This document shows, one piece after another, positions 7,043 to 63,167 of a stretch of DNA of 64,000 bases. The DNA lies in contig JAVEXP010000002.1 in NCBI GenBank assembly GCA_034003985.1, positions 80,789 through 144,788 on the forward strand. The letters are read 5' to 3'. This DNA comes from Patescibacteria group bacterium. Lineage in GTDB: Bacteria > Patescibacteriota > Patescibacteriia > Buchananbacterales > UBA6539. Position 1 is the stretch's first letter; each line of letters begins with the position of its first letter. A program made the position numbers and the translations under genes. The notes beneath the pieces were generated by a model that worked only from the letters and a program-made list of their open reading frames with translations, did no database searches and was not told the origin of the DNA.

Positions 7043-7053
7043 TGTTTTGATTC

Positions 7054-7392: not shown

Positions 7393-7421
7393 AATAAAAT
7401 ATAAATTTAACATTTAAAACT

Positions 7422-7763
7422 ATGCTAAAACGAAAACAAAAAGTAGATGATTCCGAAGTTTTAAAATTCGGATTTCTGGGCGGTATGGCCCAGTCGGTTT
7501 ATATTTTGCTGATTAGCTTATTTATTCAGATTTTGGACAAATCAACCCCGCCGCCTTATCCGGCTCAAATGTGGGGTCCGGTTTTGGTTTTAATAATGTT
7601 TGTTTTCAGCGCCGGCATTTCAGCGATTTTGATGTTTGGTTATCCGGCTTATTTGGCAATGCAGCAGCGTTACGCCGAAGCTTTGATGACAGCGGTAACT
7701 AGTTTGTTAACTTTGGCGATGATTGGTATTTTTGTTTTTATGTTGCTTTCTTCTATTTACTAA
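7422..7763 (+). CDS. Hypothetical membrane protein (3 TM)
   Basis: 113-aa ORF with three hydrophobic helices. Confidence 0.5.
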   Translation: MLKRKQKVDDSEVLKFGFLGGMAQSVYILLISLFIQILDKSTPPPYPAQMWGPVLVLIMFVFSAGISAILMFGYPAYLAMQQRYAEALMTAVTSLLTLAMIGIFVFMLLSSIY

Positions 7764-8192
7764 ATGATTCACAATAGTGCTAAGAATTTAATTTGTTTTT
7801 TTCTAGCCGCTGGTTTGGTCCTTGCCGGTTGTGTTGTCAAAAGTCCGACTGACCCAGTTGATGAATTGAATATTGGTGAATTAAGCTCGCCGCCTAGTAA
7901 TGTTAACGATTCTTCCCAAGTTGCCGAACCCGATTATCAAGAGCAAGCGGCTGATTATCAGCGTCAGGTTAGGGAAATTATTGGTGATTATCGGATTAGT
8001 CAAAGTTTCTTGGGAATTAAAGATAGCTTATTGGTTTTAACGGTGCCGGCAGGTGATTTGGATTTTCATTTTAATTTGGTGCTTGACTTTGAACTGCTTG
8101 AGCAAGCGGCTGATAATAATGACCAAAGTGAGTTTTCGTCCGTCAAGCTCCGGATTGAGGATTTAATTAATCAAACCGAGTGGTTAAATTAA
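7764..8192 (+). CDS. Putative lipoprotein
   Basis: Signal peptide with lipobox LAG-C (FFLAAGLVLAGCVV); acidic mature part. Confidence 0.55.
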   Translation: MIHNSAKNLICFFLAAGLVLAGCVVKSPTDPVDELNIGELSSPPSNVNDSSQVAEPDYQEQAADYQRQVREIIGDYRISQSFLGIKDSLLVLTVPAGDLDFHFNLVLDFELLEQAADNNDQSEFSSVKLRIEDLINQTEWLN

Positions 8193-8199
8193 TAACAAT

Positions 8200-8688
8200 A
8201 TGATCAAAAAGAAACAAGGCATCACTCTTATTGAATTGATGGTTGCTTTTTTGATTATTACCATGATTGCCACCGTGGGGATTATTTCCATTAAAAACAC
8301 CCGGGCCAAATCGCGCGATGCCAAAAGAGCCTATGACATTCAGCAGTATGCCAAGGCATTGCGGCTTTATGCCCAGGATCACGGTAATAATTTCCCGGCC
8401 GCCAACGGTTACCTGGGTCGGGGGAGCGAGTTGGATGAAATGTTAAGACCGTATTTTAGAGATTTACCCAAGGATCCTTTGGATACCGGCGGTGATTCTA
8501 TGCTTGATTATTACTATTATTATGTCGCTAGTAATGTCTGTCTGGGTGTAAATTATCCTACCGTTCATGCTCAAAATATGGAGACCGATAAGTCAGAGCT
8601 CAACGATAATACTTGCACCGATGGTCTGGGCGGTAGCGATAATGGCTATGCCGATCAGGCTGATTTTTTGGCCATAATATTTTATTAA
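8200..8688 (+). CDS. Type IV pilin / pseudopilin (prepilin-type N-terminal cleavage/methylation domain)
   Basis: N-terminus MIKKKQG-ITLIELMVAFLIITMIA matches the class III signal (G|xTLIELMV) processed by prepilin peptidase; 162 aa. Confidence 0.75.
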   Translation: MIKKKQGITLIELMVAFLIITMIATVGIISIKNTRAKSRDAKRAYDIQQYAKALRLYAQDHGNNFPAANGYLGRGSELDEMLRPYFRDLPKDPLDTGGDSMLDYYYYYVASNVCLGVNYPTVHAQNMETDKSELNDNTCTDGLGGSDNGYADQADFLAIIFY

Positions 8689-8692
8689 AATA

Positions 8693-9523
8693 ATGTCAAC
8701 CGATAATTTTTTTAATCAATTGGATAACCCTTCCAAGGCCCAGCCGATTAATCAAAACCAAAAAACCGAGCGCTGGTATTTTGGATTTTTGACCAAGACT
8801 AAGCGCTTTTGGCTTGTGACCGTTGGAATCTTTATTTTAGTGCTCGGTCTTTTAGGTTTGGTGATTATGGCCAAGGCCGGTATTGTCTATTTTCCCGGCG
8901 TATCGGAGCTGATATATCACCAGCCGCAGCCCACTAGATTGATTGTTGATTCGGTTCAAGACCAACTCTCCAGTTCGCAGCCCTTTACCGTTTCTTTCGA
9001 CGAGCAAGCCGGGGTTATTAGTTTGAATATTACCGAGGAAAATTTGACCGGTTATTTAAGGCGTAATCTCGCCCAGTCCGCCAATGCCGCTTTTGGCTCG
9101 CAGTCGCAAATTATATTTAGCGACGGTCGATTTGAATTTTTTGGCCCGATGCTGCGGCCGGTAAAAACCACTTTGACTCTGGAAGCCAGACTATTTACTT
9201 CAAATGGGCTACTGGACTATCAAATTACCAGGTTAAGGTTCGGTGATTTGGATTTGCCCCCGGCTTTATCCGACTGGCTGATTAAAGCATATTTTTCTAA
9301 TCGGGCTAAGGCTGATAATCCATTCGCCAGTCTGTTAGCTAATTTCAAAAACCTTTCAGCCGATACCGGTAAACCTAATATCAGACTGGAACGGTTCAGT
9401 TTGACTGACGGCCAGCTCAACCTGGCAATTTATTTGAATTTGGAAGAAATCAAGGCCGCGATGGAAAAAATTGGCCCCCTTATTGATCAGCGCCTTGATG
9501 AACAGTTAAATCGCAACAATTAA
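8693..9523 (+). CDS. Hypothetical protein with one N-terminal TM anchor
   Basis: 276-aa ORF, single TM (FWLVTVGIFILVLGLLGLVIMA), rest predicted extracytoplasmic; in the pilin gene neighbourhood. Confidence 0.5.
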   Translation: MSTDNFFNQLDNPSKAQPINQNQKTERWYFGFLTKTKRFWLVTVGIFILVLGLLGLVIMAKAGIVYFPGVSELIYHQPQPTRLIVDSVQDQLSSSQPFTVSFDEQAGVISLNITEENLTGYLRRNLAQSANAAFGSQSQIIFSDGRFEFFGPMLRPVKTTLTLEARLFTSNGLLDYQITRLRFGDLDLPPALSDWLIKAYFSNRAKADNPFASLLANFKNLSADTGKPNIRLERFSLTDGQLNLAIYLNLEEIKAAMEKIGPLIDQRLDEQLNRNN

Positions 9524-9534
9524 GCTGACTTATT

Positions 9535-10299
9535 ATGAAAATAATTAATCGCTCCATTCCCATTGTTTGTAGTCTGGCAATCTTGTTGCTGTCGGAGTTG
9601 GTTTTGAGCCGGGCTGATTTGCTTTGGCCATTATTTTCTTTGGCTCCGCTTTGTTTGATTGCGGCGATTTGGCAGCTGACCGGCCGGAATTTAAAATCAA
9701 AAAAATTTTGGCGCTTGTTAATAACACCATTATTGTTTTTGGTTAGTCAGTTGGGTTTTCTTAGTTTTTTGGAGGGGGCGATTTTGCGACAGCTATTGGT
9801 AATTTTTTCGTCTTTGGTAATCTGGATTTTTTTGCAGGTTATCTTTTTGCGTTTTCATTCCCGATTGAAATACCAACTTCACTCGTTGGAGAGTATCGCC
9901 ACCCACATTGATTTACTGACAATCTTTTTTGGTTGTGCAACATTGTTCAGTCTGATGTTATTTTTGGGTGTAAAATTGACTTTGTGTCTGTTAATTTTTG
10001 CCTTTATCACTTTCTTGCTTAGTTATCAAATGATTTGGGTCGGCGAGAAATCCTTGGCAGATGCCTGGCTTTATGTTATGGTAATTACGCTCATTAGCCT
10101 GGAAGTGTTTTACGCTGTTTCTTTTTTGCCAACCAGCGTTTTGGTCAACAGTCTGATCGTTACACTTGCTTATTATTTAATGGGTGGCCTGACCCGTAAT
10201 TGGTTGTTGGATATCAGGGAGGTTAATGTCGCCAAGCGTTACTTGATTATCAGTGGCATCTTGTTGCTTGTTGTTTTCCTGACGGCTAAATGGTTTTAA
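9535..10299 (+). CDS. Polytopic integral membrane protein, unknown function
   Basis: 254-aa ORF, >6 hydrophobic helices. Confidence 0.55.
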   Translation: MKIINRSIPIVCSLAILLLSELVLSRADLLWPLFSLAPLCLIAAIWQLTGRNLKSKKFWRLLITPLLFLVSQLGFLSFLEGAILRQLLVIFSSLVIWIFLQVIFLRFHSRLKYQLHSLESIATHIDLLTIFFGCATLFSLMLFLGVKLTLCLLIFAFITFLLSYQMIWVGEKSLADAWLYVMVITLISLEVFYAVSFLPTSVLVNSLIVTLAYYLMGGLTRNWLLDIREVNVAKRYLIISGILLLVVFLTAKWF

Positions 10300-10300
10300 C

Positions 10301-11458
10301 ATGAAAATTTTTCGTAAAAAATCTAATCAATTTGTTTCGCAGGTGGTAATTCTGGCGATGGTTTTTGGTTTTGCCGCCGGCGTGGTTGGCCAACTGGTGG
10401 CTGATACTTATCTTGATCCGTATGCTGAATATGCCGATAGTTACATTGCGGCCAATACTAATATCGCTCCGATCATCCCGGAACTCAGCCGGCTTAAAAG
10501 ATTTTTGGGGATTGAACAAGATTTTGCCGTTGACAAGGCTGTCCAAAAAACTCAACTTTCTTTAGCCGGTATCTATTTGGAAAAAACGGCGAATAATACT
10601 ATTAGTCAAGCTTATCTACCTTCTGATTTGCTGGCCAATGCTTTTGTTTTGACCAGTGACGGCTGGCTGGTTACCGATAGCAAGATTTTTTCCCGGTATC
10701 AAGTCAATCAGTTGGCGGTTGCTTACCAAAATAAGATTTACCAAATTGAAAAAGATATTACCGACGATGTCAGTGGCATTACTTTTGTTAAAATTTCTGC
10801 CAGCAATTTGCCGGTGATGGTTTTGGGGGATAGCGACGAAATGATCCGCGGACAATTGGCAGTAGTCTTAAATGCTTTGGGCCAGGTTGAAGTTTTGAAT
10901 CTCAAAAGCAATACTTATTATGATTTAACTTCGCCGCAGGATTTAATTCAGAGTTCGGAAGAATATCATAATTTGTTTTTGTTTAACACTCATCTTGATC
11001 AGTCGTTTGTCGGCAGTCCGGTCGTTAATCTCGCTGGTGAGGTGGTTGGCGTTATAAATTATGTTGATTTAAATGACAATTTGATCACCGCGGTGCCGCT
11101 CAATCAGTTTCGGCCGGTGGCACTTGATGTCTTGCGCAGCAATGTGGTCAAGCGCCCTTATTTGGGTGTTGAATATTTGGATTTATCCCAAACTATTGGT
11201 TTGAGTGATTCGGTTAGCCAGGGTTTGGATCGGGGAGCGTTGGTCTTTCAACAGCCAACCAAATCCAGCCCGGCGGCTGAGGCCGGTGTAAAATTAAACG
11301 ATATTATTTTAAGTGTCGAAGGGCAGTTGGTTGGAAAGGATAGCAGTTTAACCGAATTGATTCAACAGTATCAGCCTGCCGATCAAATTATTTTGGAAGT
11401 TCTGCGTGACGGTCAAGTAATCAGTTTCGATGTCACTTTGTCACTTTTGACTCAGTAG
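10301..11458 (+). CDS. HtrA/DegP-like trypsin-fold protein with C-terminal PDZ domain (catalytic motifs apparently degenerate)
   Basis: N-terminal TM, trypsin-like core with VGSPVVNLAGEVVGVINYV in place of GNSGGPLVN and no obvious catalytic His; PDZ-like C-terminus (GVKLNDIILSVEGQLV...ILEVLRDGQVISFDVTL). Confidence 0.6.
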   Translation: MKIFRKKSNQFVSQVVILAMVFGFAAGVVGQLVADTYLDPYAEYADSYIAANTNIAPIIPELSRLKRFLGIEQDFAVDKAVQKTQLSLAGIYLEKTANNTISQAYLPSDLLANAFVLTSDGWLVTDSKIFSRYQVNQLAVAYQNKIYQIEKDITDDVSGITFVKISASNLPVMVLGDSDEMIRGQLAVVLNALGQVEVLNLKSNTYYDLTSPQDLIQSSEEYHNLFLFNTHLDQSFVGSPVVNLAGEVVGVINYVDLNDNLITAVPLNQFRPVALDVLRSNVVKRPYLGVEYLDLSQTIGLSDSVSQGLDRGALVFQQPTKSSPAAEAGVKLNDIILSVEGQLVGKDSSLTELIQQYQPADQIILEVLRDGQVISFDVTLSLLTQ

Positions 11459-11509: not shown

Positions 11510-11797
11510 CTATTCTTTGATCAAATCCTTCTTAGTTAAATCGGGGTGAGGGGAATAGAGTTTATTTTTAATTTTCCACTTATCCACATATTTCCCAATC
11601 CCTTTTTGAGATAGCTTATTTTTGATCGTCGTTTTGCCTTGCGACCATTCCAGCAGGCTGACGAAATTGATTTTATACCGCCCTTGGACTACGATGTATT
11701 TTAATAGCCCGTCTTTAATGGCGCGCCTGATGGTTTTTTGTTCCACGCCAAATAGTCTGGCGGCCTCGGAAACTGATAACCTGATGACATTTGACAT
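11510..11797 (-). CDS. Excisionase/MerR-family helix-turn-helix DNA-binding protein
   Basis: 95 aa; HTH LSVSEAARLFGVEQKTIRRAIKDGLLKYIVVQGRYKI resembles excisionase-family HTH_17 domains; basic C-terminus. Confidence 0.65.
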   Translation of the reverse strand: MSNVIRLSVSEAARLFGVEQKTIRRAIKDGLLKYIVVQGRYKINFVSLLEWSQGKTTIKNKLSQKGIGKYVDKWKIKNKLYSPHPDLTKKDLIKE

Positions 11798-11814
11798 ATT
11801 GTTTGGTTTAGAGA

Positions 11815-11842
11815 TTTTTGTCTAGACTAGTCTAGACAAAAA
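11815..11842. promoter_or_regulatory. Perfect 28-bp palindrome (putative operator) 18 bp upstream of the minus-strand HTH gene
   Basis: TTTTTGTCTAGACT|AGTCTAGACAAAAA is an exact inverted repeat (14+14); lies in the divergent intergenic region. Confidence 0.6.
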
Positions 11843-11924
11843 TGATAATTATTGACTTAAGTATATTATAATTTTTTCAGTTTGGCAATATTATTAGGCC
11901 CTTAATTGTATTGCTAAACCTACT

Positions 11925-11953: not shown

Positions 11954-12006
11954 ATACTCTATTACTGTAACAAATTGACCCAAATCTCGTCTTAATTAGT
12001 GTCTTA

Positions 12007-12573
12007 ATGAATTCTTCAAAATTTCAGGAAAAACTGCTATTATTACGGCTGAAGAAAAAGGATCCGGAAGCTTTCTCTAAAATATATGATCTGTATGTTA
12101 CGCCAATCTACAGATTTATTTATTTTAAAGTGGCTAGCCGGCAGGATGCCGAAGACCTAACTTCCGAATTGTTTTTAAAGATTTGGCAGTATGCTACTGA
12201 AAGTGATGAAGAAATTGAAAACTTAAGGGCCCTGTTATATCGTTCGGCCAGAAATTTGGTGATTGATTTTTATCGTCGGAATGCCCGGCGGGATCTGACT
12301 CGGGACGAAGAGGTTTTGAACAATGTCCAGGATGAGCGGCAGCAAAGCTTGCTGGCCAGAATTGACACCGAACTTGGCATGCGTAGCATCGAAAAAGTTT
12401 TGCGCCAGTTAAAGGATGAATATCGTGAAGTAATTTTGTTGCGCTATGTCGAAGAACTGTCGATTGGTGAAATCGCCGACATCCTTGGCAAGTCCCGGGG
12501 ATCAGTCAGGGTTTTGCTCCATCGTGCCCTTAAGGTTTGCAAAGATTTGATAGATAATAAAAAGGATGAATAA
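12007..12573 (+). CDS. ECF-type RNA polymerase sigma-70 family factor
   Basis: 188 aa; region-2-like FSKIYDLYVTPIYRFIYFKV...DLTSELFLKIW and region-4 HTH LSIGEIADILGKSRGSVRVLLHRAL. Confidence 0.8.
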   Translation: MNSSKFQEKLLLLRLKKKDPEAFSKIYDLYVTPIYRFIYFKVASRQDAEDLTSELFLKIWQYATESDEEIENLRALLYRSARNLVIDFYRRNARRDLTRDEEVLNNVQDERQQSLLARIDTELGMRSIEKVLRQLKDEYREVILLRYVEELSIGEIADILGKSRGSVRVLLHRALKVCKDLIDNKKDE

Positions 12574-13474
12574 TATCATTTCCGAATTCAAAAATTTAAA
12601 GGACGAAGTCTCTCCTCGTTCCGAATGGGTTGAACTCAACCGGAATTTTTTGTTGCAGCAAATTAGCAGCAGCCAACCAACCAGAACCCGAGTTTCGTTG
12701 GGAGACTACCTTGGTTTGTTTACCGCCGCTTTTCGTCAGCATCTACTTGAACCAGCCGTCGTGATGATTTTGATTTTGGTTTTTTCGCTTTCTAGCAGTC
12801 TGACCATTAACGCCGCTTTTTACAGCTTGCCCGGCGACACTTTGTATCCCGTCAAATTGGCTTTGGAAAAAACCCATGTCAGTTTGACTCCCGACGAACA
12901 AAAGAAAGTAGAGTTAAAGATTGAATTTGCCGAAAAGCGGATTGCCGAATTCCATAAGATTGTGGCCCAACCCGATGCCAATCCGCAAGAGAAGCAGAAG
13001 AAAATTGAAACCGTTGTTAAAGAATTCAAGAATAATGTGGTGGCTGTCAGTAATCATTTGAATAAAATCAGCCAAGATGAAATCAGTCTAGATCAGGCCG
13101 CTAAAGTCAGGATGGCGGTAGCGGTTAGTGAAAAGACCGAAGAGCTGGCTAAAAATTTGGATCAAAATGCCGCCGATCTGTCTGATGCTGATAAGAAACA
13201 GTTTGAGGATGCCGTGGCCGAGGTTGTCGCTTCCGCCCGCCAGTTGGCTGAAAATATTGAAGCGCAAGCGCTGCAGTCGGAGGATCAGACCGGCAGTAAC
13301 GAAACCAAATCGGTTGATCAGCCTGGCATCGTCGAAGGTGTAGACAATCAGACCGATGTAAGCATCGGACAAAACAATTCTGATGATCAGGACAATTCCG
13401 CTGCAACGACTGATACCGAGTCAGTTTCTGATTCGGGTTCGGCAGAAGTTGATGAAACAGTGGAAACAGAATAA
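12566..13474 (+). CDS. Membrane-anchored putative anti-sigma factor (DUF5667-like) with acidic low-complexity C-terminal tail
   Basis: Overlaps the sigma gene stop by 8 nt; single TM (AVVMILILVFSLSSSLTINAAF) followed by LPGDTLYPVKLALE... and coiled-coil region; D/E/S/T-rich tail. Confidence 0.55.
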   Translation: MNNIISEFKNLKDEVSPRSEWVELNRNFLLQQISSSQPTRTRVSLGDYLGLFTAAFRQHLLEPAVVMILILVFSLSSSLTINAAFYSLPGDTLYPVKLALEKTHVSLTPDEQKKVELKIEFAEKRIAEFHKIVAQPDANPQEKQKKIETVVKEFKNNVVAVSNHLNKISQDEISLDQAAKVRMAVAVSEKTEELAKNLDQNAADLSDADKKQFEDAVAEVVASARQLAENIEAQALQSEDQTGSNETKSVDQPGIVEGVDNQTDVSIGQNNSDDQDNSAATTDTESVSDSGSAEVDETVETE

Positions 13475-13512
13475 TTATTTTAGTAAGCAATCCTAACTTT
13501 AAGTTAGGGGCT

Positions 13513-13741
13513 TAAAATAAAAGTTCATTGATACTTTTTGGACCAATTAGGGTTTAGTTTCCCTTGATGACCTAAGGCAAAGGTCGATCCAATGACTTGG
13601 AGTCTTTCGCCTGTCAAGGAATTAGAAGCTAAACGGCTTTGTGCCCGCAGGCGATGTTGTTAGGTTCGCCTAGGCGTAACAAAATCGCTGTCAGCCTAAC
13701 CGGAAAGCTTTGATGAACAAAATTAATGAAAGGAAATAAAC
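13513..13741 (+). promoter_or_regulatory. Long, relatively GC-rich, stem-loop-rich 5' leader of the giant surface-protein gene
   Basis: 267-bp non-coding gap with several hairpins read by eye (CCAAtgacTTGG; CGCCTG...CAGGCG enclosing AAGCtaaacgGCTT; GTTAGG...CCTAAC enclosing GCCTAGGC); strong RBS AAAGGAAAT 7 nt before ATG 13742. Confidence 0.35.
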
Positions 13742-16700
13742 ATGACTAAAAGATTACTAACCTACGCTGTTGTTATTTCAACCGTCGTTTGGTCAGTAGG
13801 CTTGCTCGCTATGCCTTTTTCTGTGGGAGCAGCCGTTTCCGGCGATCTAGTTAAGAAAGCCGGCAGTCCAGCCGTTTTTTACCTTGGTGCTGATAGCAAG
13901 CTGCACACTTTTACCAGTTCAGCTGACTATTTCACTTGGTATAGTGATTTCTCGGGTGTCGTCACCATTTCTGACACCGAGTTTTCCGGCTACCAGTTAG
14001 GAAGCAATGTCTTCCCAAAACCTGGCGTCAAATTAGTCCAGGTTGTTGATGGTGAAACTCCTTGGAACATTTTCAGTCCAACGGTTTACGCCATTGCTGG
14101 TAATGGTACTGCTCGACCAATCGGTAGTGCTGAAGCAGCTGTCGAATTATACGGTGCCAATTGGGAATCAATGATTATCCCGGTTGTTACCAGCGTATTC
14201 AGCCAATACAAAGCCGGCGAAACCATTAATTCAGCTTCCGATTTTGACAAAGAAGCTGAAATGGAAGATGCCGCTACCATTAATGATGATTTGAACTTGA
14301 CCCTTGGCGGTGGATCCGGTGTATCAACCGGTACCAGCTTAACCGTCGCCTTGGCTTCTGATACCCCAGCCAGCGGTCTTTTACTTGGTAACACGATTAA
14401 TAATCGGATGACCAAGGTTAATTTGACTGCTTCCGCTGATGGTGACATTGTCATTGATCAGTTGGTTGTTAAAAGAGGTGGCACCGTCGCTTCCGATGGT
14501 CCTTTCTCTTCAATCGCTTTGATTGATGCTGGCACCAACACCAGAATTGGCAACACTAAAACCTTAAATTCCGAACACAAGGCTGTCTTCAATCAAGACA
14601 TTACTATTCCAGCCGGTACCACCAAAACCATTTACTTGGCTGGTAACTTGGGCGCCACCGCTGCTTACGCCGGTGAAATCCCAAGCTTGGACTTGGATTC
14701 AGTTACCTTGTCGGGCAGTGCCGCGGTTATTGGCAGCTTGCCAATCGTTGGTCACTACCAGAATATCAATGGAACCATTACGGTCGGTACTTTGACCGTC
14801 CACAAGGGTTCCAATCAGCCTGATGCTTCAACCCAGAAGATCGGCGTTACCAACTACATCGTTTCCGGCGTCAAATTATCCGCCAACTCCACTGAAGATT
14901 TCAAAGTGACTCAAATCACTTGGGATGAAGGTGGTACTGCCGGTGATTCCGATGTCGCCAACTTAGATTTGTTGGTCGACGATGCTGTAGTCGCGACCGT
15001 AGCCCAGCCCAGCGATGGTAAGGTTACTTTCAACCTATCAGCCAACCCGATTGTCATTCAAAAAGGCAGAAGCGTTCAAGTTGACTTGCAGTTAGACATC
15101 CTTGATGGTTCAGACCGGACCATCCGCTTCGACATTGAAGACGAATCAGACATCTATGCTCGTGGTGAATTATATGGTGCGGAAGTCAAGGTTGCTGCCA
15201 GCTCCGACGCCGAAGTTGTTGCTGACGCCACCCCATTCTACACTGCCAAAATAACCACCATTGATCGTGGTGCCTTGCGAATTAGCACCGCTACTTTGTC
15301 TGCCACCAATATTCCTGAGGATGCTACTCAGATTTTATTGGGTAAATTCGAATTCGAAGCCAAGGGTGAACCAGTTGAAATCACTTCATTGCCAATCGCG
15401 TTTACCGTTACCACTTCAACCGGTGACTTATCAACCGATAGTGCTGTTGATATTACCGCGGTAACTGTTTATGACGAAAATGGCAAAGTTGTCGCTGGTC
15501 CAATTGACCCGGTAAGCAAAGTTTCTGCTTATGGTGGTAACAATGCTGTTGAGTTATTGGTTGCTACCACTACTGATTCAATCACTGTCCCAGCTGGTAA
15601 GCACATCTATTCCGTTAAAGCCGACATCGATTCTGATTTCGGTACTAACGATACGATTGTTGTCAGAATCAACCCCGGTCAGGTTACGGCTAAGGGTGAA
15701 AGTACTGGTTTGTCAGTAAGTCCAACCCCAAGTACCGACCAGAGTTCAGCGGTAATGACAGTTCAGTCAGCCGCTTTGTCAATCTCAATTTCCTCCACCC
15801 CGGTTGCTCAGAATGTGGTTGCCGGTTCCAAAGACTTCGTTTTTGCTAATGTTGTCCTAGGTGCCCAATCATCCGGTGAGGACATTAAGGTTACCAAGAT
15901 CAAGGTTCAAGTTGACGCGGTTGCCAGCGCCAGTCCATCAGAAGTTTCCAACTGGAGCATTTTTGACGGTTCAACCGAACTGTCAGTCACCAATGATCCA
16001 GATTCCGATACTTCCACCAAGACTACCGCTGCTTCCGATGCCACTTCAACCTTCACCTTCACCACTCCTTTAGTTATTCCTAAGGGAACTTCCAAGACCT
16101 TGACCATCAAGGGTGATGTCAGCAGTTCTGCTACCAACAACGGTACCATCCGCGTTGGTATTGAAGACCAGACTTCAGAAACCATTACCGCCAAAGGTAA
16201 GGATACTGATTTGGATGCCGCTTTGACTGTTTCCGAAAGTGCCGGTCAAACCATGACTATCAAGTCAACTGGTGGTTTGACTATCACTCGTGACAGCAGC
16301 GCGCCCAAAGCTGGTTTGTTGCCTGCTAACTCACAAGGTTTGACTGTTGGCGTTTTCAGCGCTTCCGCTACTAACGAAGATGTTAATATCGAGAAGTTGT
16401 ACTTAACCGCCGTTCAAGCCAACGGTGGTGGTCTAGACCAGATTAACAAGTTGTATCTCTACAACGGCAGCACTTTGCTGGCCGAAGTTGAGCCAACTAG
16501 TACCGACGGTGTTGACCGAACAGTTTTGTTCGATGTCACCAACAACCCGATTGTCGTCGCTAAAGACAGCAGCACCAAGTTGACCCTAAAGGCCGACACT
16601 GCCGCTGCCGACTATGAACGGGCCTTGGGTACTGGTTCATCCGGTGAAGGTCTATGGTTAAAGATTGCCGCCACTAGCGATATTACGGCCAAGGGCGCTC

Positions 16701-17440
16701 AATCCGGCACCACCATCACCAGCAAAGACATTACTAATGCTTCGACTACCGCTCAATATGTTTTCCGCAGCGTTCCAACCGTTACGCCAAACGAGAATTT
16801 GGCCAGCCCGGTTAACGGCGGAACTTTGAGCACCAAGACCAATGAACCGGTCTACAAGTTCAGCGTTACTGCCAGTTCTGCTGGTCCAGTCGCCTTGTAT
16901 CGCGTTCAATTCTTGGTTACCACTTCAACTGCTACCACCACCAACTACAAGTTGACTGATGGTACAGAAGATGTCGCCGCTACCTCCACCGGTATCATTT
17001 TGACCACCGGCACTGGTAATGGCAGCCAGATCGTTGAATTTTTGATGACTTCCGACGGTCTTGCTCCGGCATCAGGTGGTACTAATGTCCAGCCTTATGT
17101 CATTGCTACTGGCCAGACCAGGACTTTCGTTGTTCGAGCCGACTTAGAATGTAATTCTTTGAACTGTGCTGCTTCCAGCGGTGCTACCGGCGGTTCAATC
17201 TCCTGGCAGATGCTGGGTGACACCGCTTTGCCAAGCACCATGCCAGCTAGCGCTATGGCTCTTGACGACGAAATGTACGAAAGCAGCTTTATCTGGGGCG
17301 ACTTATGGCGGACTTCCGTTTTGGAAGTTTCCTCCACCACTGCTTCTTCATCAGCACAGTGGTCAAATGGTTACCTCGTTGCCGAAGCTGACGGCGGTAA
17401 GTTAGCCGCTACTTCAACTGCTGTAACTTTCACTAAATAA
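13742..17440 (+). CDS. Large secreted Thr/Ser/Ala/Val/Gly-rich surface protein (S-layer/adhesin-like, predicted beta-rich repeats)
   Basis: 1232-aa ORF; N-terminal signal peptide MTKRLLTYAVVISTVVWSVGLLAMPFSVGA|AVS; extreme Thr/Ser content, no LPXTG or C-terminal TM; GC of the gene above local average; followed by a strong double terminator. Confidence 0.8.
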   Translation: MTKRLLTYAVVISTVVWSVGLLAMPFSVGAAVSGDLVKKAGSPAVFYLGADSKLHTFTSSADYFTWYSDFSGVVTISDTEFSGYQLGSNVFPKPGVKLVQVVDGETPWNIFSPTVYAIAGNGTARPIGSAEAAVELYGANWESMIIPVVTSVFSQYKAGETINSASDFDKEAEMEDAATINDDLNLTLGGGSGVSTGTSLTVALASDTPASGLLLGNTINNRMTKVNLTASADGDIVIDQLVVKRGGTVASDGPFSSIALIDAGTNTRIGNTKTLNSEHKAVFNQDITIPAGTTKTIYLAGNLGATAAYAGEIPSLDLDSVTLSGSAAVIGSLPIVGHYQNINGTITVGTLTVHKGSNQPDASTQKIGVTNYIVSGVKLSANSTEDFKVTQITWDEGGTAGDSDVANLDLLVDDAVVATVAQPSDGKVTFNLSANPIVIQKGRSVQVDLQLDILDGSDRTIRFDIEDESDIYARGELYGAEVKVAASSDAEVVADATPFYTAKITTIDRGALRISTATLSATNIPEDATQILLGKFEFEAKGEPVEITSLPIAFTVTTSTGDLSTDSAVDITAVTVYDENGKVVAGPIDPVSKVSAYGGNNAVELLVATTTDSITVPAGKHIYSVKADIDSDFGTNDTIVVRINPGQVTAKGESTGLSVSPTPSTDQSSAVMTVQSAALSISISSTPVAQNVVAGSKDFVFANVVLGAQSSGEDIKVTKIKVQVDAVASASPSEVSNWSIFDGSTELSVTNDPDSDTSTKTTAASDATSTFTFTTPLVIPKGTSKTLTIKGDVSSSATNNGTIRVGIEDQTSETITAKGKDTDLDAALTVSESAGQTMTIKSTGGLTITRDSSAPKAGLLPANSQGLTVGVFSASATNEDVNIEKLYLTAVQANGGGLDQINKLYLYNGSTLLAEVEPTSTDGVDRTVLFDVTNNPIVVAKDSSTKLTLKADTAAADYERALGTGSSGEGLWLKIAATSDITAKGAQSGTTITSKDITNASTTAQYVFRSVPTVTPNENLASPVNGGTLSTKTNEPVYKFSVTASSAGPVALYRVQFLVTTSTATTTNYKLTDGTEDVAATSTGIILTTGTGNGSQIVEFLMTSDGLAPASGGTNVQPYVIATGQTRTFVVRADLECNSLNCAASSGATGGSISWQMLGDTALPSTMPASAMALDDEMYESSFIWGDLWRTSVLEVSSTTASSSAQWSNGYLVAEADGGKLAATSTAVTFTK

Positions 17441-17463
17441 CCTTTACTGAAAATTACATAGTT

Positions 17464-17542
17464 GGGCTGTTGTAAAAAACAGCCAAAACCTAAAACCCCC
17501 GCCAAGTGGCGGGGGTTTAGGTTGTCAGACTTGGTTTTTTTT
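17464..17542 (+). terminator. Tandem rho-independent terminators after the surface-protein gene
   Basis: Hairpin GGCTGTT-gtaaaaa-AACAGCC, then CCCCCGCC-aagt-GGCGGGGG + TTT, then a second T-run (GGTTTTTTTTG). Confidence 0.65.
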
Positions 17543-17562
17543 GCTAAATTTAATCTAGATTT

Positions 17563-19263
17563 ATGCTGGAATTCATCAATAAAAATCGGAAAATATTTTT
17601 AGGGCTGATAATACTATTGGCCGTTTTTTTGATATTTTTCAGGCTGGATCGGGCTGATATGCAAACTGATGACGCAATTAATTCCTTTCGGGCGATTGGT
17701 TATCTTGATTTTATGGATGCCAATACTCAGACTACGCCGGTTGATTGGTTTGAAACTATACCTTGGTGGTCAAAACTTTCATTTCATGACGCCCCGCCCT
17801 TGGTTTTTATTTTGCAGTTTTTAACTTTTAAATTGTTTGGTATTTCTACTTTCGCCGCTCGCTTGCCTTTTGCTTTAGCCGGCTTAGGTTCAGTTATTCT
17901 GTTATACTTCGTTATTAAAAAACTTTATAATGCCAACATCGCCTTATTGGGAAGTTTTATTTTGAGTATTCTGACTTATCATATTTGGGCCAGTCGCGTC
18001 GGCTATTTGGAAGCCGTGGCTTTGTTTTTTATTCTTTTGACCATCTATTTGTTTTTGTTGGCTCTAAATAATCCTAAATATTTTATTTTATTTGGTGTTT
18101 CGTTGGGCTTTACCATTCTTACCAAATATACGACTTTTTTCATTATCCCAGTATTTTTTATTTATTTATTTGTTGTTAACAAAAGATTATTGATCAATAA
18201 ATATTTTATCGCGGCCATTTTGCTTGCTGCTCTAATGTTTTCGCCGGTGATTTTTTATAATTTCAAGGTTTTCCAAGCTCGTGGCCATTTTGATTTGCAA
18301 TTTTCTCGCTTACTCCGTCAGGATATTTCCCAAGACTGGCCGAAGTTTAATGATGGTCAAACTGACTATGCTGTAAATTTAATTCGTGTTTGGGATCTGC
18401 GGGAAATGGTGTCTTTACCACTTGTTATTTTATTGGTTGTTTGTTTGATTATGATAATCTACGATTCGGTGCTGTCTTGGCGAAACAAAAAAAATTTTTT
18501 ATTGCTGCTGCTGCTGTTGTTTTTTACTTTGGAATTTTCAATCATTGGAACAGCGGTTCGATTTCTTTCAGTTATTGCTCCGTGGGTGGCAATGATCCTG
18601 GCTTTGGGAATAATATCGGGGTATGACTTATTTATCAAAGGGACTAATTACCAGAATCTCAAAACTTCGGGGTTGATTTTGATTTTAATTTTGATTTTTG
18701 GTTTTGAACTATTTTTTAACATCAACACTAATCTGGTGATTAAACCGTTTGGTGAGAGGGGTAAATACTATTCCGTTAACCGCCTGGCCAACGGCGGGTT
18801 TAACCAATTGGCCGAATATCTTGAAGCCAACACTGACATTGCCAGTTATTCTAAAACCGTCATTAACAGCCGGCGCGATCTGGTGTATTCCGTTTCTTCG
18901 CTGAATGGTAAAGATGTTTATATTTTTGACCCTAATCTGAATTGGTTTTCGGCCAAGTGGTATTTTAGCCGTTGGACTGTTTATCACCATATTCTTTTTA
19001 CTTCGGCGACTGACCTGGTTGCTTCTGGCGTTATTAATGAAGATAATTGGTTTAGTTTTTTTGGCAAGCTTGGCGTTAGAAATTTATATTATCTGAAAGG
19101 TGAAAACGATTTATTGTTTACCAATCACGATTTAGCCAGTCCCGACCAAGTGTCGTCTGCAAATTTGGCAATTTTATTCAGTCGTGCCGGAGCTGATACT
19201 GTGTCGATTACCAATTTGGCGGGGGACCAAGCCTTTGAAGTTTATAAATTAAAATTAAATTAA
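17563..19263 (+). CDS. GT-C fold membrane glycosyltransferase, PMT/ArnT-like (GT39/GT83-type, PMT_2-like)
   Basis: 566 aa, ~11 TM N-terminal region with loop-1 acidic motif (MQTDDAINSFRAIGYLDF) and conserved FHDAPPLVFILQ...LTKYTTFF, C-terminal soluble domain; paralogue of 19973..21622. Confidence 0.7.
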   Translation: MLEFINKNRKIFLGLIILLAVFLIFFRLDRADMQTDDAINSFRAIGYLDFMDANTQTTPVDWFETIPWWSKLSFHDAPPLVFILQFLTFKLFGISTFAARLPFALAGLGSVILLYFVIKKLYNANIALLGSFILSILTYHIWASRVGYLEAVALFFILLTIYLFLLALNNPKYFILFGVSLGFTILTKYTTFFIIPVFFIYLFVVNKRLLINKYFIAAILLAALMFSPVIFYNFKVFQARGHFDLQFSRLLRQDISQDWPKFNDGQTDYAVNLIRVWDLREMVSLPLVILLVVCLIMIIYDSVLSWRNKKNFLLLLLLLFFTLEFSIIGTAVRFLSVIAPWVAMILALGIISGYDLFIKGTNYQNLKTSGLILILILIFGFELFFNINTNLVIKPFGERGKYYSVNRLANGGFNQLAEYLEANTDIASYSKTVINSRRDLVYSVSSLNGKDVYIFDPNLNWFSAKWYFSRWTVYHHILFTSATDLVASGVINEDNWFSFFGKLGVRNLYYLKGENDLLFTNHDLASPDQVSSANLAILFSRAGADTVSITNLAGDQAFEVYKLKLN

Positions 19264-19267
19264 AACT

Positions 19268-19966
19268 ATGAGTAAGAAAAAAATTAATCTTATTATTTCA
19301 ATCGTTGTCTTGCTGTTGGTATTGATTGGTATTGGTTGGTATTTTTCCGCCGACCTGGTTAAGCTGTTGCCACAACAACAGGAGCCGGTTGTTTTATCCG
19401 AATTCAAAGTGGTTCGGACCGACTTGAGCGAAGATCAGATTTCGCAATATCGTCAGGAATTTGATCGTCTGCTTGGTTTACTTGATGAGTCACCGGACGA
19501 TTTTTATGTTTTGTTGCAGCTTGGGCGCGTCAAAAAAGATGTTGGGGACTATCATGGCGCCGAGGCGATTTGGATTAGGGTGGGTGAAATCAGCCCTCAA
19601 AACAGCGTTTCTTTCGGCAACTTGGCCGATTTGTATACTAATTTTATGTTTGATAAAGATAAAGCTCTCGCTGCTTATCGGACCGCTGTTGCCAATTCAG
19701 CTAATGAGCCGATTAACTTGCCGTTTTATCGGAATTTTTATGATTTTTATCGCTACAGCTTGAATGATATGGAAGGTGCCAAGCAAGTTTTATTGGAGGC
19801 GATTGCTAATAACCCTTTGAGCAGCGAACTCCATGTTTTGCTTGCCCAGTTTTATTTAGACAATGATCAGCAAGAGCAGGCTTTGCGAAGTTTTCAGGAG
19901 GCCTTAAAGATTGATCCGGATGATGAACTAATCAAAGCCGAAATCGAAAAGTTGAATAAGCGTTAA
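19268..19966 (+). CDS. TPR-repeat protein with N-terminal TM anchor
   Basis: 232 aa; TM (LIISIVVLLLVLIGIGWYF); TPR-like helical repeats (LGRVKKDVGDYHGAEAIW..., ALRSFQEALKIDPDD). Confidence 0.6.
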   Translation: MSKKKINLIISIVVLLLVLIGIGWYFSADLVKLLPQQQEPVVLSEFKVVRTDLSEDQISQYRQEFDRLLGLLDESPDDFYVLLQLGRVKKDVGDYHGAEAIWIRVGEISPQNSVSFGNLADLYTNFMFDKDKALAAYRTAVANSANEPINLPFYRNFYDFYRYSLNDMEGAKQVLLEAIANNPLSSELHVLLAQFYLDNDQQEQALRSFQEALKIDPDDELIKAEIEKLNKR

Positions 19967-19972
19967 TTTTTA

Positions 19973-21622
19973 ATGAAAAAATTTTCTCGCCAATTATTTT
20001 TGCTTTTGGCAATTTTGACTTTGGCCGCCTCGCTTAGGTTTTGGGGTATTACCAAAGCCGATGTTATTACCGATGAAGCCTTAATCGGCTTTCGCAGTAT
20101 TGGCTATCTTGATTTTTTCGTTTCACCTTACCAAACCACTCCCTATGAGTGGTTTTTGGTTGTTCCGGCTTGGGCTAAGCTTTCTTTCCATGATCATCCT
20201 CCCTTGACTTTTATTTTGCAGCATTTGTCTTTCACTGTTTTTGGCCAAAATGTTTTTGCCTTGAGATTGCCGTTTGTTTTGGCCGGAATCGTCAGCGTCT
20301 ATCTTTTGTATTTGGTATCGTGGCAATTGTTTAAGCGCTTTGATTTAGCCTTGGTGGGAGCATTACTTGTCGCCGTTTCTTGTTGTCAGGTTTGGATCAG
20401 TCGGATTGGCTTGCAGGAATCTTTGGTAATTTTATTTTCATTGCTGTCAGTTTGGTTATTCTTAAGATCGCTGGAAGATAATCGTCATTGGCTTTGGGGG
20501 CTTAGTTTGGGTTTGGCGGCATTGATTAAATATACGGCTTTTATTTTATTACCAGTATTTTTTATTTATTTTTTGATTTATCGCCGCTCAGTTTTTCGCC
20601 AGTCTAAATTTTGGTTGACTTTGTTACTAATGCTGGTAATTTTTAGCCCGGTATTGATTTATAACTTCAAGATGTTTCAGGAACGCGGGCACTTTGATTT
20701 GCAGTTTTCTTATTTGTTCAATCAGCCAGTCGAAGAATGGCAGTTTTTGCCTGGCAAAATTCAGGCTGGCAGTCTGGCTGATCGGTTTGGCCATTTAGTC
20801 CCGGCCTTGTTCAGTAATTTGATGTGGCCGTTGTTTATTGTTTGGGCAATGAGTTTAATTTATTTTATTATTCGCGCTCGGCACAATCCTAATGTAATAT
20901 TTTTGTTTTTAATTATAATTTTTGAGCTGCTGTCTTTTCTGATTATCGGTCCCAGCAAGCGTTTTGTGGCGGTAGTCGTGCCTTATATTATTATTTTTGT
21001 CGCCTGGTTTATTTGTCAACAGCCCCGGCTGTTGAAGCGGTCTTTATTGGCCATTCTGGTTAGTTTGGAGCTGATTTTCACTATCAATACCTTGATTTTG
21101 CCTTATCCTGTTGGCGCCGAAAATATTACTTATTCCAACTTAAAAATTGAAAGTTACCAGTGGGGTTACAAACAACTTGATGATTATCTTGATAGCTTAT
21201 TGGCTGATAAGTATCCGGCCGTCAGTTTTGTTCCTCGTTACCAATTTTTGGAAGATATAAAAAATCAGGCGATTGAGTTGGCTGAAAATCAAGGCAAGGA
21301 GTCTTCTCAAACTTTGGTTATTTATGATGCCGATATGTTTGATTTGGCGACTTTATGGCTGTTTCATCGCCGGATGATTTATCAAGGCTGGCCGATTATT
21401 ACGGCCCAAGATTATTTATCTCAATCCAAAGAATTTTGGCAAGAGCAGGGGATTAATGATTTTTATTTTTTCCAACTAATTGATTCGCAGATGCTTCAAC
21501 AGCCAGAAATTGATCGCACTTCTTATTCTCAGGAGCTGGTCGGCCAAATCAGGGACTATTTAACCCGGAAAATAAAACGGCCTGACGGCCGTGAGGTGGT
21601 AGCGGTATATCATTGGCAATAA
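19973..21622 (+). CDS. GT-C fold membrane glycosyltransferase, PMT/ArnT-like (second paralogue)
   Basis: 549 aa; loop-1 DE motif (VITDEALIGFRSIGYLDF), FHDHPPLTFILQ, LIKYTAFILLPVFFIYF; same architecture as 17563..19263. Confidence 0.7.
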   Translation: MKKFSRQLFLLLAILTLAASLRFWGITKADVITDEALIGFRSIGYLDFFVSPYQTTPYEWFLVVPAWAKLSFHDHPPLTFILQHLSFTVFGQNVFALRLPFVLAGIVSVYLLYLVSWQLFKRFDLALVGALLVAVSCCQVWISRIGLQESLVILFSLLSVWLFLRSLEDNRHWLWGLSLGLAALIKYTAFILLPVFFIYFLIYRRSVFRQSKFWLTLLLMLVIFSPVLIYNFKMFQERGHFDLQFSYLFNQPVEEWQFLPGKIQAGSLADRFGHLVPALFSNLMWPLFIVWAMSLIYFIIRARHNPNVIFLFLIIIFELLSFLIIGPSKRFVAVVVPYIIIFVAWFICQQPRLLKRSLLAILVSLELIFTINTLILPYPVGAENITYSNLKIESYQWGYKQLDDYLDSLLADKYPAVSFVPRYQFLEDIKNQAIELAENQGKESSQTLVIYDADMFDLATLWLFHRRMIYQGWPIITAQDYLSQSKEFWQEQGINDFYFFQLIDSQMLQQPEIDRTSYSQELVGQIRDYLTRKIKRPDGREVVAVYHWQ

Positions 21623-36832: not shown

Positions 36833-36869
36833 TTATTTACAACATCAATAGGCCTCAATTTTTAAGAAT

Positions 36870-38535: not shown

Positions 38536-38544
38536 AATTAAAAT

Positions 38545-39834: not shown

Positions 39835-39836
39835 TC

Positions 39837-42011: not shown

Positions 42012-42012
42012 T

Positions 42013-58886: not shown

Positions 58887-58893
58887 TTTAGTT

Positions 58894-61970: not shown

Positions 61971-62042
61971 TTATTATAAATTTGTTTTTTCGATTTTTAA
62001 AAATAAAAGGGGAGCTAGGGTGAGTTTTGTTTTTAAAAATCC

Positions 62043-63158: not shown

Positions 63159-63167
63159 TATTATACC

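Follow-up and report, generated by a model that had tools for sequence, protein, structure and literature searches.

The window analysed here, a 64,000-nucleotide (nt) stretch of a Patescibacteria group bacterium (contig JAVEXP010000002.1 of assembly GCA_034003985.1, positions 80,789 to 144,788 of the forward strand), contains a conserved gene unit in which an extracytoplasmic function (ECF) sigma factor, a DUF5667 membrane protein, a structured leader RNA and a large secreted protein succeed one another on the + strand. The last member of the unit, a 1232-aa protein encoded by the open reading frame (ORF) 13742-17440 and hereafter called BIG, is with good confidence the main surface-layer (S-layer) protein of this ultra-small bacterium. 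On balance, we favor reading the locus as a whole as a module that serves the expression and maturation of the S-layer in an ABY1-type (Buchananbacteria-like) Patescibacterium; the closest matches to the proteins of the window were found in Candidatus Buchananbacteria and other 'Patescibacteria group' metagenome-assembled genomes.

A conserved gene unit ending in BIG

The relatives used for comparison comprised 86 non-redundant loci, 80 of them from species-representative genomes and the others fetched by exact look-up. Upstream counts refer to the 63 loci whose upstream flank spans 4 kb or more, and downstream counts to the 47 evaluable loci, within 6 kb 3' of BIG. The sigma factor and DUF5667 genes were found directly 5' of BIG in 54 of 63 loci, and the loci lacking them belong mostly to a clade whose BIG homologues carry a PG_binding_1 domain. 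Of the 63 loci, 52 have an HTH_17 gene in divergent orientation. The same gene order was found in dozens of species-level genomes and can hardly be due to chance. An earlier sequence-only reading of this DNA had listed genes that were all recovered as ORFs at exactly the same positions, and it had called their arrangement uncharacterized; this is true of the entire module, whereas for the protein family an S-layer assignment had already been proposed in a 2024 preprint (bioRxiv 10.1101/2024.05.28.596244). New are the conserved sigma-DUF5667-leader-S-layer unit, its promoter, the covariation-backed RNA motif, a mobile EccB/PlyCB-like module, and the statistics of the downstream partners, namely tetratricopeptide repeat (TPR) proteins, glycosyltransferases of the GT-C fold (GT-Cs) and Wzy_C proteins.

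BIG as the probable S-layer protein

BIG carries a signal peptide (residues 1-32), which is its sole hydrophobic stretch, and no LPXTG motif was found in it. The protein is rich in Thr (12.6%), Ser (11.0%), Ala (10.6%), Val (9.3%) and Gly (8.7%), with a combined Ser and Thr content of 23.6%, a mature pI of 4.35 and two Cys residues. Composition and hydrophobicity therefore agree with the earlier description of a 3.7-kb ORF for a secreted protein of this bias, lacking both LPXTG and a transmembrane (TM) anchor. An AlphaFold2 model based on a 65-sequence alignment (mean pLDDT 89 for mature BIG and 92 for its N-terminal domain) begins with an alpha/beta domain of ~155 aa, continues with a short flexible linker and is all-beta after residue ~165. 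Self-comparison by BLAST revealed no internal repeats in BIG. Profile-profile comparison (hhalign on sub-alignments) showed that six segments are mutually homologous with probabilities of 94-99.5%, the N-terminal domain being unrelated to them. These six Ig-like domains, of the repeated kind that the sequence-only reading had envisaged, occupy residues 195-340, 341-505, 506-670, 671-830, 831-1005 and 1006-1232 (nt 14324-17437, +).

Neither BIG nor its N-terminal domain had a match in Pfam or NCBIfam, and the BIG-family profile retrieved nothing meaningful from PDB sequences. Foldseek searches with the whole model returned only generic tandem Ig-like arrays, including PrgB and invasin-like arrays. 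The top fold matches of the N-terminal module (residues 33-~190, nt 13838-14310, +) were EccB1 and PlyCB-type wall-binding domains, at low scores. A sister clade, comprising more than 944 proteins of the size of BIG (E~1e-107 to BIG), has PG_binding_1 (PF01471) in place of this module. The module itself recurs in 3321 representative clusters; the proteins concerned measure 157-2348 aa, bear it at either end and combine it with Big_1/invasin, Big_5, CBM_4_9, fn3 and similar surface domains. It was not found on other proteins of the window or of the fetched loci. The exchange for PG_binding_1 in the sister clade and the recurrence on diverse surface proteins argue for an anchoring role. BIG would thus be exported by Sec, held non-covalently on the wall through its EccB/PlyCB-like module, in place of which sister lineages would use PG_binding_1, and assembled through its six Ig-like domains.

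More than 393 homologues of BIG were collected from Buchanan-, Komeili-, Kuenen-, Falkow-, Magasanik- and Uhrbacteria, representing six or more candidate orders. Nearly all are full length, and their sizes are tightly conserved (median 1228 aa, interquartile range 1207-1246) at 25-65% identity. The codon bias of BIG is the strongest among native genes of the window (effective number of codons 42.1 vs 47.7±3.1), and the shifts in its glycine codons (GGT 0.68 vs 0.36, GGG 0 vs 0.11) look like translational selection. Some Falkowbacteria-like genomes (L043, L046 and L049) have two to three further BIG-like paralogues in tandem 3' of the main gene, as well as Wzy_C and GT4 genes upstream of HTH_17. 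One PG_binding_1-type homologue (P0090; L009 6115-9777) is labelled 'DNA topoisomerase IV subunit A' in NCBI, an evident misannotation.

Earlier genome papers left the envelope of the candidate phyla radiation (CPR) unclear, and a glycosylated S-layer was only speculated upon (PMC5220378). The 2024 preprint proposes a putative Patescibacterial S-layer protein, obtained from a scan of a Nealsonbacteria genome, in which six Ig-like assembly domains form a left-handed spiral and for which a p6 hexagonal-pyramid lattice is predicted; the examples given include A0A1G2EN61, A0A1F5NRV7, A0A0G1WWP5 and GMX59286.1 (bioRxiv 10.1101/2024.05.28.596244). Relatives of this candidate are among the top-5 expressed secreted proteins in the study of Kuroda et al. 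(PMC10936435), who described related proteins as peptidoglycan-binding domain plus Ig-like proteins and as possible host-attachment factors, a layout that equals the architecture of the sister clade of BIG. The preprint protein and BIG share the phylum, a signal peptide, a size of ~1130-1270 aa, six Ig-like domains and numerous homologues across classes. They differ in the anchor, which is EccB/PlyCB-like in BIG and PG_binding_1 in the preprint protein; moreover, the preprint describes no sigma factor or DUF5667 genes, leader RNA or glycan-transfer neighbors. Judged by architecture, size, taxon and the PG_binding_1 sister clade, BIG is very likely a class-specific version of the six-Ig protein. 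It weighs against this link that it rests on these four features and that no accession-level match was obtained.

The claim of the sequence-only reading that BIG is an abundant, S-layer-like surface protein is upheld by the six Ig-like domains and anchor module, the constant length, the strong codon bias and the match to the architecture of the published candidate; since the preprint already proposes this architecture, the S-layer assignment is supported but not new. That BIG is instead a host-attachment adhesin or fiber of an episymbiont, as Ig-like arrays typical of adhesins, the PrgB and invasin-like fold matches, the view of Kuroda et al. and the type IV pilus genes just upstream of the module might suggest, is very unlikely, because length and six-domain count are fixed over 25-65% identity whereas the repeat number of adhesins varies, and because BIG is mostly single-copy per locus, strongly codon-biased, acidic and almost free of Cys, with lattice prediction and very high expression reported for its relatives.

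A conserved leader RNA precedes BIG

The 267-nt spacer between the DUF5667 and BIG genes (13475-13741) folds with a minimum free energy of -85.7 kcal/mol (z=-4.8), and none of 200 shuffled sequences folds as well. The spacer had been described as hairpin-rich, and it proved to be structured far more specifically than that. Folding, alignment and covariation delimit a conserved leader RNA at 13518-13741 (+), which begins, with helix P0, ~50 nt 3' of the DUF5667 stop codon. As resolved by RNAalifold and manual inspection, a nested closing element is formed by P0 (13523-13531/13710-13718), P1 (13534-13541/13700-13707) and P1b (13547-13551/13695-13699). It encloses, from 5' to 3', P2 (~13553-13566/13618-13636), an invariant unpaired AAAGGUCGA (AAAGGTCGA in the DNA, 13579-13587, +), hairpin P3 (13588-13603, +), a variable hairpin, and P5 (13653-13686, +), which is capped by CGCCUAGGCG (apical CGCCTAGGCG in the DNA). 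The Shine-Dalgarno (SD) sequence GAAAGGA (13728-13734, +) lies 3' of the element and is left unpaired.

Relatives have common sequence blocks across this spacer. In a MAFFT alignment of nine sequences, pairing is seen in 92.1% of the cells, and both sides are changed in 25 of 52 pairs; none of 500 shuffles reached any of these measures, and slid alignments paired at 31-54%. A covariance model retrieved 26 matches in 1.5 Mb, one per locus and all ending at the BIG ATG, 13 of them from outside the seed; it had no match elsewhere in the window. In the alignment of these 26, which is biased towards structure since it was fitted to the model, 92.5% of the cells pair (36-52% when slid), 41 of 52 pairs show compensatory changes, and double changes affect 250 cells compared to 69±8 in shuffles. 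The G-U pairs on the + strand show that the structure exists at the RNA level. P0 is present in nearly all sequences despite differing in sequence (GUUCAUUGA/UUGAUGAAC, GAGCUCA/UGAGCUC and ACUCGUCUAA/UUAGGUGAGU). P5 is present in 13 of 26 and there near-invariant, including the palindromic apical CGCCUAGGCG, with a compensatory CACCUAGGUG in L016; conservation to this degree suggests that P5 is bound specifically and is not just a stem. The AAAGGTCG core was found in 45 of 67 DUF5667-BIG spacers, against ~0.4 expected, and the element therefore extends beyond the matches of the covariance model. A search of Rfam gave no match at the gathering threshold, the best sub-threshold hit (E=0.44) being far below the cutoffs. 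Taken as a whole, the leader is very probably a real functional RNA.

A hairpin (CCTAACT-TTA-AGTTAGG, 13492-13508, +) with equivalents in relatives follows the DUF5667 stop codon. As it lacks a U-tract, a canonical intrinsic terminator between DUF5667 and BIG was ruled out. A promoter scan of the leader detected no sigma70-type promoter, and the ECF-type promoter that had been sought in 13513-13741 is likewise lacking, this stretch being itself paired RNA; the block AAAGTTCATT...TTTTTGGAGCAATTAGG, considered as a promoter candidate, was rejected as the 5' strand of P0, P1 and P1b. With neither a U-tract nor a detectable sigma70 or ECF promoter, BIG mRNA may be either part of the operon transcript driven by the ECF promoter or the product of a -10-only promoter; hypothetically, the -10-like TAAAAT at 13513-13518 would place the 5' end at P0.

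Long structured 5' untranslated regions and 5'-terminal stem-loops stabilize mRNAs of S-layer and outer-membrane proteins, as in Lactobacillus slpA and E. coli ompA. The leader of BIG resembles these in being long, structured and placed before a gene for a surface protein of presumably very high expression, and its outer helix would likewise pair the 5' end and leave the SD free. It is unlike them in its ~200 nt with five or more helices, in the conservation of sequence and covariation across a bacterial class, in the invariant unpaired AAAGGUCGA, in its position inside an operon, and in having no Rfam family. A paired 5' end and a free SD fit a role in mRNA stabilization or processing. The closed multi-helix fold would then let BIG mRNA accumulate far above sigma factor mRNA, through cleavage of the operon transcript or through a -10-only promoter 5' of P0. 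For this organism, the transcription start site, the processing and the function of the leader are inferred.

Sigma factor, promoter and the DUF5667 partner

The ECF sigma factor (12007-12573, +) comprises regions 2 and 4 only (Pfam r2, r4 and r4_2) and scores above the cutoff of the NCBIfam sigma70-ECF model; the best named NCBIfam model is that of the BldN family (124.8 bits, below its cutoff of 206). Its end overlaps the DUF5667 gene (12566-13474, +) by 8 nt (ATG..TAA), and Pfam confirmed both members of this pair, which had been noticed in the sequence alone. An ECF-type promoter, TGTAAC-N16-CGTC (11966-11991, +), was recognized as a motif shared with relatives and stands at a fixed position before the sigma factor gene in 30 loci; it was found in none of the BIG leaders (0 of 86 loci). 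It ends 15 nt before the sigma factor ATG in the window and ~4 nt before the called start codon in the comparison of the 30 loci, so that the sigma factor mRNA would be nearly leaderless. In one relative (L007), where a terminator and an AT-rich region lie 5' of the sigma factor gene, a sulfatase gene lies between sigma factor and DUF5667 genes, and the ECF motif is positioned ~75 nt 5' of DUF5667-BIG. That the motif stays with DUF5667-BIG suggests that these two genes are the target unit of the sigma factor. Independent data for Ca. Yanofskyibacterium show the same co-oriented order of an ECF sigma factor (00352), a DUF5667 protein (00351) and a 692-aa S-layer candidate (00350), with normalized expression at day 14 of 7.6, 12.5 and 16.7, respectively; a stabilizing or processing leader would explain this steep gradient.

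The sigma factor, DUF5667, leader and BIG would accordingly form one conserved unit with BIG last and an autoregulated TGTAAC-N16-CGTC promoter at its head. We are somewhat inclined to think that BIG transcription depends on the ECF sigma factor. The earlier suggestion of ECF control is thus plausible through co-transcription from the promoter before the sigma factor gene, though not through a promoter in 13513-13741. A parallel exists in Streptomyces, where the ECF sigma factor of the BldN/RsbN pair drives the chaplin and rodlin surface-layer genes. Both cases would have an ECF sigma factor dedicated to a proteinaceous surface layer, with BldN as the best-scoring named model; they differ in that the score here is below the cutoff, that a DUF5667 protein takes the place of the partner and that sigma factor and target share one operon. 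No paper was found on DUF5667 or on ECF sigma factors in Parcubacteria.

The DUF5667 protein (PF18915, E=3e-12) is a single-pass membrane protein with a ~60-aa cytoplasmic N-terminus, a TM segment at residues 63-81, a helical ectodomain and an acidic tail. Across the family, the cytoplasmic N-terminal ~35 residues are conserved, as is SLPGDxLYPxK at the start of the helical ectodomain. The overlap with the sigma factor gene and the single-pass, N-in topology match the layout of anti-sigma factors (ASD and ZAS classes), and from this context the protein is presumed to be a membrane sensor and anti-sigma factor. Two observations weigh against this role: residues 1-85 gave no Pfam match to an anti-sigma domain even at E<=10 and the N-terminus has no Cys, and in Ca. 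Yanofskyibacterium the DUF5667 transcript is far above that of the sigma factor, which is unusual for an anti-sigma factor. Of the earlier description as a DUF5667-like anti-sigma factor, the family assignment therefore stands, and an anti-sigma domain is not detectable.

These same observations, together with the long helical ectodomain, the acidic tail and the position of DUF5667 immediately 5' of BIG even where the sigma factor is displaced (L007), could be explained if the protein were an S-layer partner, that is, a coiled-coil spacer or stalk, anchored in the membrane, by which the lattice is positioned or nucleated, functionally akin to SlaB, the partner of SlaA in Sulfolobales, with the sigma factor linked for co-expression only. 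We regard this as unlikely, given that the overlap of sigma factor stop and DUF5667 start (translational coupling) and the N-in topology are the classic sigma/anti-sigma layout, that the cytoplasmic ~35 residues are conserved, and that the PG_binding_1 clade does without an adjacent DUF5667 gene. Returning to DUF5667 as the presumed anti-sigma factor, a bolder extension, which we put forward as a long shot, is that sigma factor, DUF5667, leader and BIG form a self-measuring S-layer homeostasis circuit of an undescribed kind. Here, DUF5667 would release the sigma factor when its ectodomain detects that S-layer protein is missing or unassembled. The leader, as a new class of cis-regulatory RNA with an invariant AAAGGUCGA junction, would then gate mRNA processing, stability or translation through its binding to a protein, to the ribosome or to a small ligand.

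Divergent from the sigma factor gene lies a gene for a small DNA-binding protein of the HTH_17 (excisionase/MerR-like) family (11510-11797, -; PF12728, E=7e-10). A perfect 13-bp inverted repeat read in the sequence just 5' of its start (TTTTTGTCTAGAC-TAGT-GTCTAGACAAAAA, 11814-11843) is a candidate operator for this protein. The closest relative (L001) keeps the repeat with paired substitutions (TTGTCCAGAC/GTCTGGACAA), and perfect inverted repeats with arms of at least 10 bp were found in 14 of 63 HTH_17-sigma spacers. In one relative, a reverse-transcriptase (RVT_1) gene is inserted just 5' of the HTH_17-sigma-DUF5667-BIG unit (L003/L004 5851-6882). Further upstream in the window (5996-11458) are genes for a type IV pilus ATPase (T2SSE), a pilin-like N_methyl protein, a DUF5656 membrane protein and a PDZ/trypsin protease. 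The protease gene is syntenic within 4 kb in 11 of 63 loci, and its product could be the site-1 protease for DUF5667 if the latter is an anti-sigma factor.

Glycosyltransferase and TPR genes downstream of BIG

BIG is followed by two hairpins (17465-17484 and 17493-17518, the latter of 11 bp with 8 GC) and a T-run (17535-17542) on the + strand. What had been taken for a strong double terminator is real as to the two hairpins 3' of BIG, but it is not canonical, the T-run not abutting the second stem; the region 17465-17542 is a candidate transcription stop or mRNA 3' stabilizer. Next come a PMT_2/ArnT-like GT-C of 566 aa (GT-C#1, 17563-19263, +; Pfam and profile search) with a candidate promoter of its own in the promoter scan (TTGTCA-17-TAAATT, 17522-17550, +), a 232-aa TPR protein that is N-terminally membrane-anchored with an extracytoplasmic TPR domain (19268-19966, +; Pfam), and a second PMT_2/ArnT-like GT-C of 549 aa (GT-C#2, 19973-21622, +), which is 100% identical to NCBI MDX9893218.1. 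The two GT-Cs are 33% identical to each other. Among 39 GT-C homologues, D30 and D34 of loop 1 and the LSFHDHPPL block (D74, P76) are invariant and E35 is near-invariant. Pfam and this alignment are in accord with the earlier description of two ~550-aa GT-Cs with an acidic loop 1 and an FHDxPPL block on either side of a TM-anchored TPR protein.

Both GT-Cs score higher with PMT_2 (78 and 96 bits) than with PMT (PF02366; 50.5 and 35.3 bits, cutoff 22.7), and Pfam detected no PMT_4TMC domain in either. Single-sequence searches against PDB gave no match, and a family profile was needed; with it, ArnT (5ezm, E=4.6e-7) came first, followed by Pmt1 (6p25, E=1.6e-3) and AglB, all through the shared core only. 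The loop-1 DE motif aligns with D77/E78 of Pmt1, and the ArnT equivalog (NCBIfam PRK13279) gave 23 bits against a cutoff of 567. By these sequence comparisons, the GT-Cs belong to the broad PMT_2/ArnT-like class.

Co-occurrence across relatives, which is high for the sigma factor and DUF5667 genes, varies among the downstream partners. A ~230-aa TPR protein is encoded 3' of BIG in 31 of 47 loci, a Wzy_C protein (often fused to TPR) in 21 and a GT-C in 13; any of the three occurs in 40 of 47, and a convergent GT4 gene in 20 of 47. The TPR protein is the most constant downstream partner of BIG, the PG_binding_1 clade included. The GT-C/TPR/GT-C arrangement is typical of the Buchananbacteria-like clade (L001, L010, L012, L014, L015 and L037). 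Elsewhere, a GT2-PMT_2 fusion protein exists (P0221), and GT2 adjoins PMT_2 in L003 and L092. In L092 (9513-14191), PMT_2 stands with GT2, an epimerase and a DegT aminotransferase in an Arn-like aminosugar-transfer set with no BIG nearby. A transposase of the Y1 family lies within the downstream glycan genes of L006, and a 2730-aa RHS/TcdB/SpvB toxin-like protein is encoded beside a GT-C homologue in a Patescibacterial contig (L091 1204-9396).

The glycan island

A ~35-kb glycan-biosynthesis island, recognized by Pfam and NCBIfam, extends over 21623-52521. It contains seven GT4 genes (21623(-), 25064, 26179, 27282, 28839, 30796 and 50082(-)), an epimerase (22854), a UDP-Glc dehydrogenase (23811), an ABC exporter of 597 aa (32236), the nonulosonic-acid genes for a PseB-like enzyme (34034), DegT (35025), CMP-transferases (36140 and 37783), NeuB (40484) and GNAT (41538), a LicD gene (45194) and the initiating Bac_transf (51130(-)). 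The nonulosonic-acid pathway in 34034-43830 (pseudaminic/legionaminic-type) is apparently complete and accompanied by a fused nucleotidyltransferase-aminotransferase (605 aa). Beyond the island lies a Wzy_C protein (O-antigen-ligase/PglL/WsaB fold) fused to TPR repeats (52644-55097, +); other orders encode a protein of this kind directly after BIG/TPR. The Wzy_C-TPR gene of the window is directly followed by that of a subtilase of 754 aa with FG-GAP repeats (55099-57363), which may be a surface protease for envelope maturation. A GtrA-like flippase (57366-57815), an epimerase (57861-58886) and a small GT2 (58813-59571), all on the + strand, are a candidate polyprenyl-phosphate-sugar supply line for the GT-Cs. 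At the edge, a C-5 cytosine DNA methylase gene (62043-63158, -; GC at third codon positions 0.20) lies in a region of low GC content (62001-64000, 0.307) with reversed GC skew, which is probably foreign DNA (restriction-modification or mobile element).

Several known systems offer partial parallels. The slg cluster of Geobacillus stearothermophilus combines sgsE with wsaB (a Wzy_C O-oligosaccharyltransferase), wsaP (Bac_transf) and an ABC transporter. In the window as in the slg clusters of Firmicutes, the S-layer gene precedes a glycan cluster that encodes an initiating phosphoglycosyl transferase, glycosyltransferases, an ABC exporter and a Wzy_C enzyme; the window differs in its additional GT-C PMT_2 paralogues, the free or fused TPR, the distance of 31 kb to Wzy_C, the ECF sigma factor and the RNA leader, and any glycosylation of BIG is putative. 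The S-layer of Tannerella forsythia (TfsA/TfsB) carries an O-glycan capped with nonulosonic acid, and here too the genes of a nonulosonic-acid pathway (PseB/PseC-like, NeuB, CMP-transferases) stand close to the S-layer gene; however, the Bacteroidota sequon D(S/T)(A/I/L/V/M/T) is not enriched in BIG, and phylum and envelope are different. GtrA/GtrB/GtrC, CsbB-YfhO, GtlA-GtlB and ArnC/ArnT modify O-antigen, teichoic acids or lipid A. With these the window shares a GtrA-like flippase, a small GT2 and GT-Cs, with ArnT as the nearest solved structure by profile, whereas its genes adjoin an S-layer gene and a TPR protein, and Patescibacteria lack lipid A (PMC5220378). With the GT39 PMTs (yeast Pmt1/2, actinobacterial Pmt), the GT-Cs share the fold, the loop-1 DE motif and the PF02366 match; they are unlike them in lacking PMT_4TMC and MIR domains, in scoring higher with PMT_2 than with PMT, and in the rank of ArnT above Pmt1. 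S-layer genes also stand next to loci for anchor polymers, as do slpA/cwp beside the PSII locus in C. difficile and sap/eag beside csaB in B. anthracis. In their layout, the island and BIG resemble such pairs, and the GtrA/GT2/GT-C systems that decorate teichoic acids, as much as the slg and Tannerella glycosylation clusters.

What the sugar-transfer genes may act on

The extracytoplasmic TPR protein would work with polytopic glycan transferases that vary between lineages, a GT-C PMT_2 enzyme here and a Wzy_C-TPR protein elsewhere and at 52.6 kb. Together with the island, the transferases would either O-glycosylate BIG or build and decorate a wall glycopolymer to which BIG binds. None of the known O-glycosylation sequons is enriched in BIG, which leaves the glycan acceptor between BIG and a wall polymer, and no paper was found on O-glycosylation in Patescibacteria. 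Direct glycosylation of BIG by the GT-Cs is possible rather than probable; glycosylation of BIG in some form is rated somewhat higher. Besides the missing sequons, it weighs against an action of the GT-Cs on BIG that GT-C adjacency is confined to some lineages and that distant GT-C homologues (35-39% identity) lie away from BIG genes.

A serious competitor, which we nevertheless hold short of probable, is that GT-C, TPR, Wzy_C and the island make, ligate or decorate a secondary wall glycopolymer (teichoic-acid-like or a secondary cell wall polymer) that is bound by the module of BIG, and do not modify BIG itself. GtrA, GT2 and GT-C would then act, by analogy, like CsbB/YfhO or GtlA/GtlB in the glycosylation of teichoic acids. 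The presence of the flippase and the small GT2, the proximity of the GT-Cs by profile to ArnT, an enzyme with a lipid-linked acceptor, the Arn-like set of L092 and the variable adjacency of the GT-Cs would all fit such a polymer. So would the well-folded nature of BIG, which has neither enriched sequons nor disordered Ser/Thr/Pro linkers, and the difference of the anchor module between clades (EccB/PlyCB-like vs PG_binding_1), as expected if wall chemistry differs. However, the small TPR gene stands directly 3' of BIG even in the PG_binding_1 clade, whose proteins should bind to peptidoglycan itself, and since TPR repeats bind proteins, the fusion of Wzy_C to TPR points to an acceptor or partner that is a protein. 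Moreover, S-layer genes followed by clusters with a Wzy_C O-oligosaccharyltransferase are the rule in glycosylated S-layers of Firmicutes.

Less well does the proposal of the sequence-only reading survive, in which the GT-Cs are O-mannosyltransferases of the PMT/GT39 type acting on Ser/Thr of BIG during Sec export, and BIG is transcribed from an ECF promoter in its own leader. PF02366 is above its cutoff in both proteins, the DE motif aligns with Pmt1, the genes stand directly 3' of BIG in the Buchananbacteria-like clade, nearly a quarter of BIG is Ser and Thr, and there is precedent for a GT-C beside its protein substrate in TfpW, encoded beside pilin in P. aeruginosa. Nonetheless, the profile evidence favors PMT_2 and ArnT, PMT_4TMC is lacking, a GT-C is nearby in a minority of loci, distant homologues occur in unrelated contexts, no BIG leader has an ECF motif, the proposed promoter stretch is paired RNA, and mannose-activation genes were not noticed in the island. 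We therefore consider this reading unlikely and do not retain the designation of the GT-Cs as PMT-like O-mannosyltransferases of BIG.

Implications for Patescibacteria

The CPR/Patescibacteria make up a large share of bacterial diversity, and their S-layer protein has so far been proposed from structure prediction only. A dedicated ECF sigma factor with a readable promoter and a membrane partner, present in more than 50 species, offers a regulatory handle on the CPR S-layer, and the leader motif could be registered in Rfam and used as a genomic marker for S-layer genes. The mobile EccB/PlyCB-like module, with its 3321 clusters, may mark the CPR surface proteome and bears on the attachment of episymbionts to their hosts, while TPR, GT-C, Wzy_C-TPR, GtrA/GT2 and the nonulosonic-acid island are candidates for distinguishing a glycosylated from a polymer-anchored CPR coat. 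If the homeostasis circuit were true, a bacterium with a minimal genome could match the synthesis of its coat to the growth of its surface.

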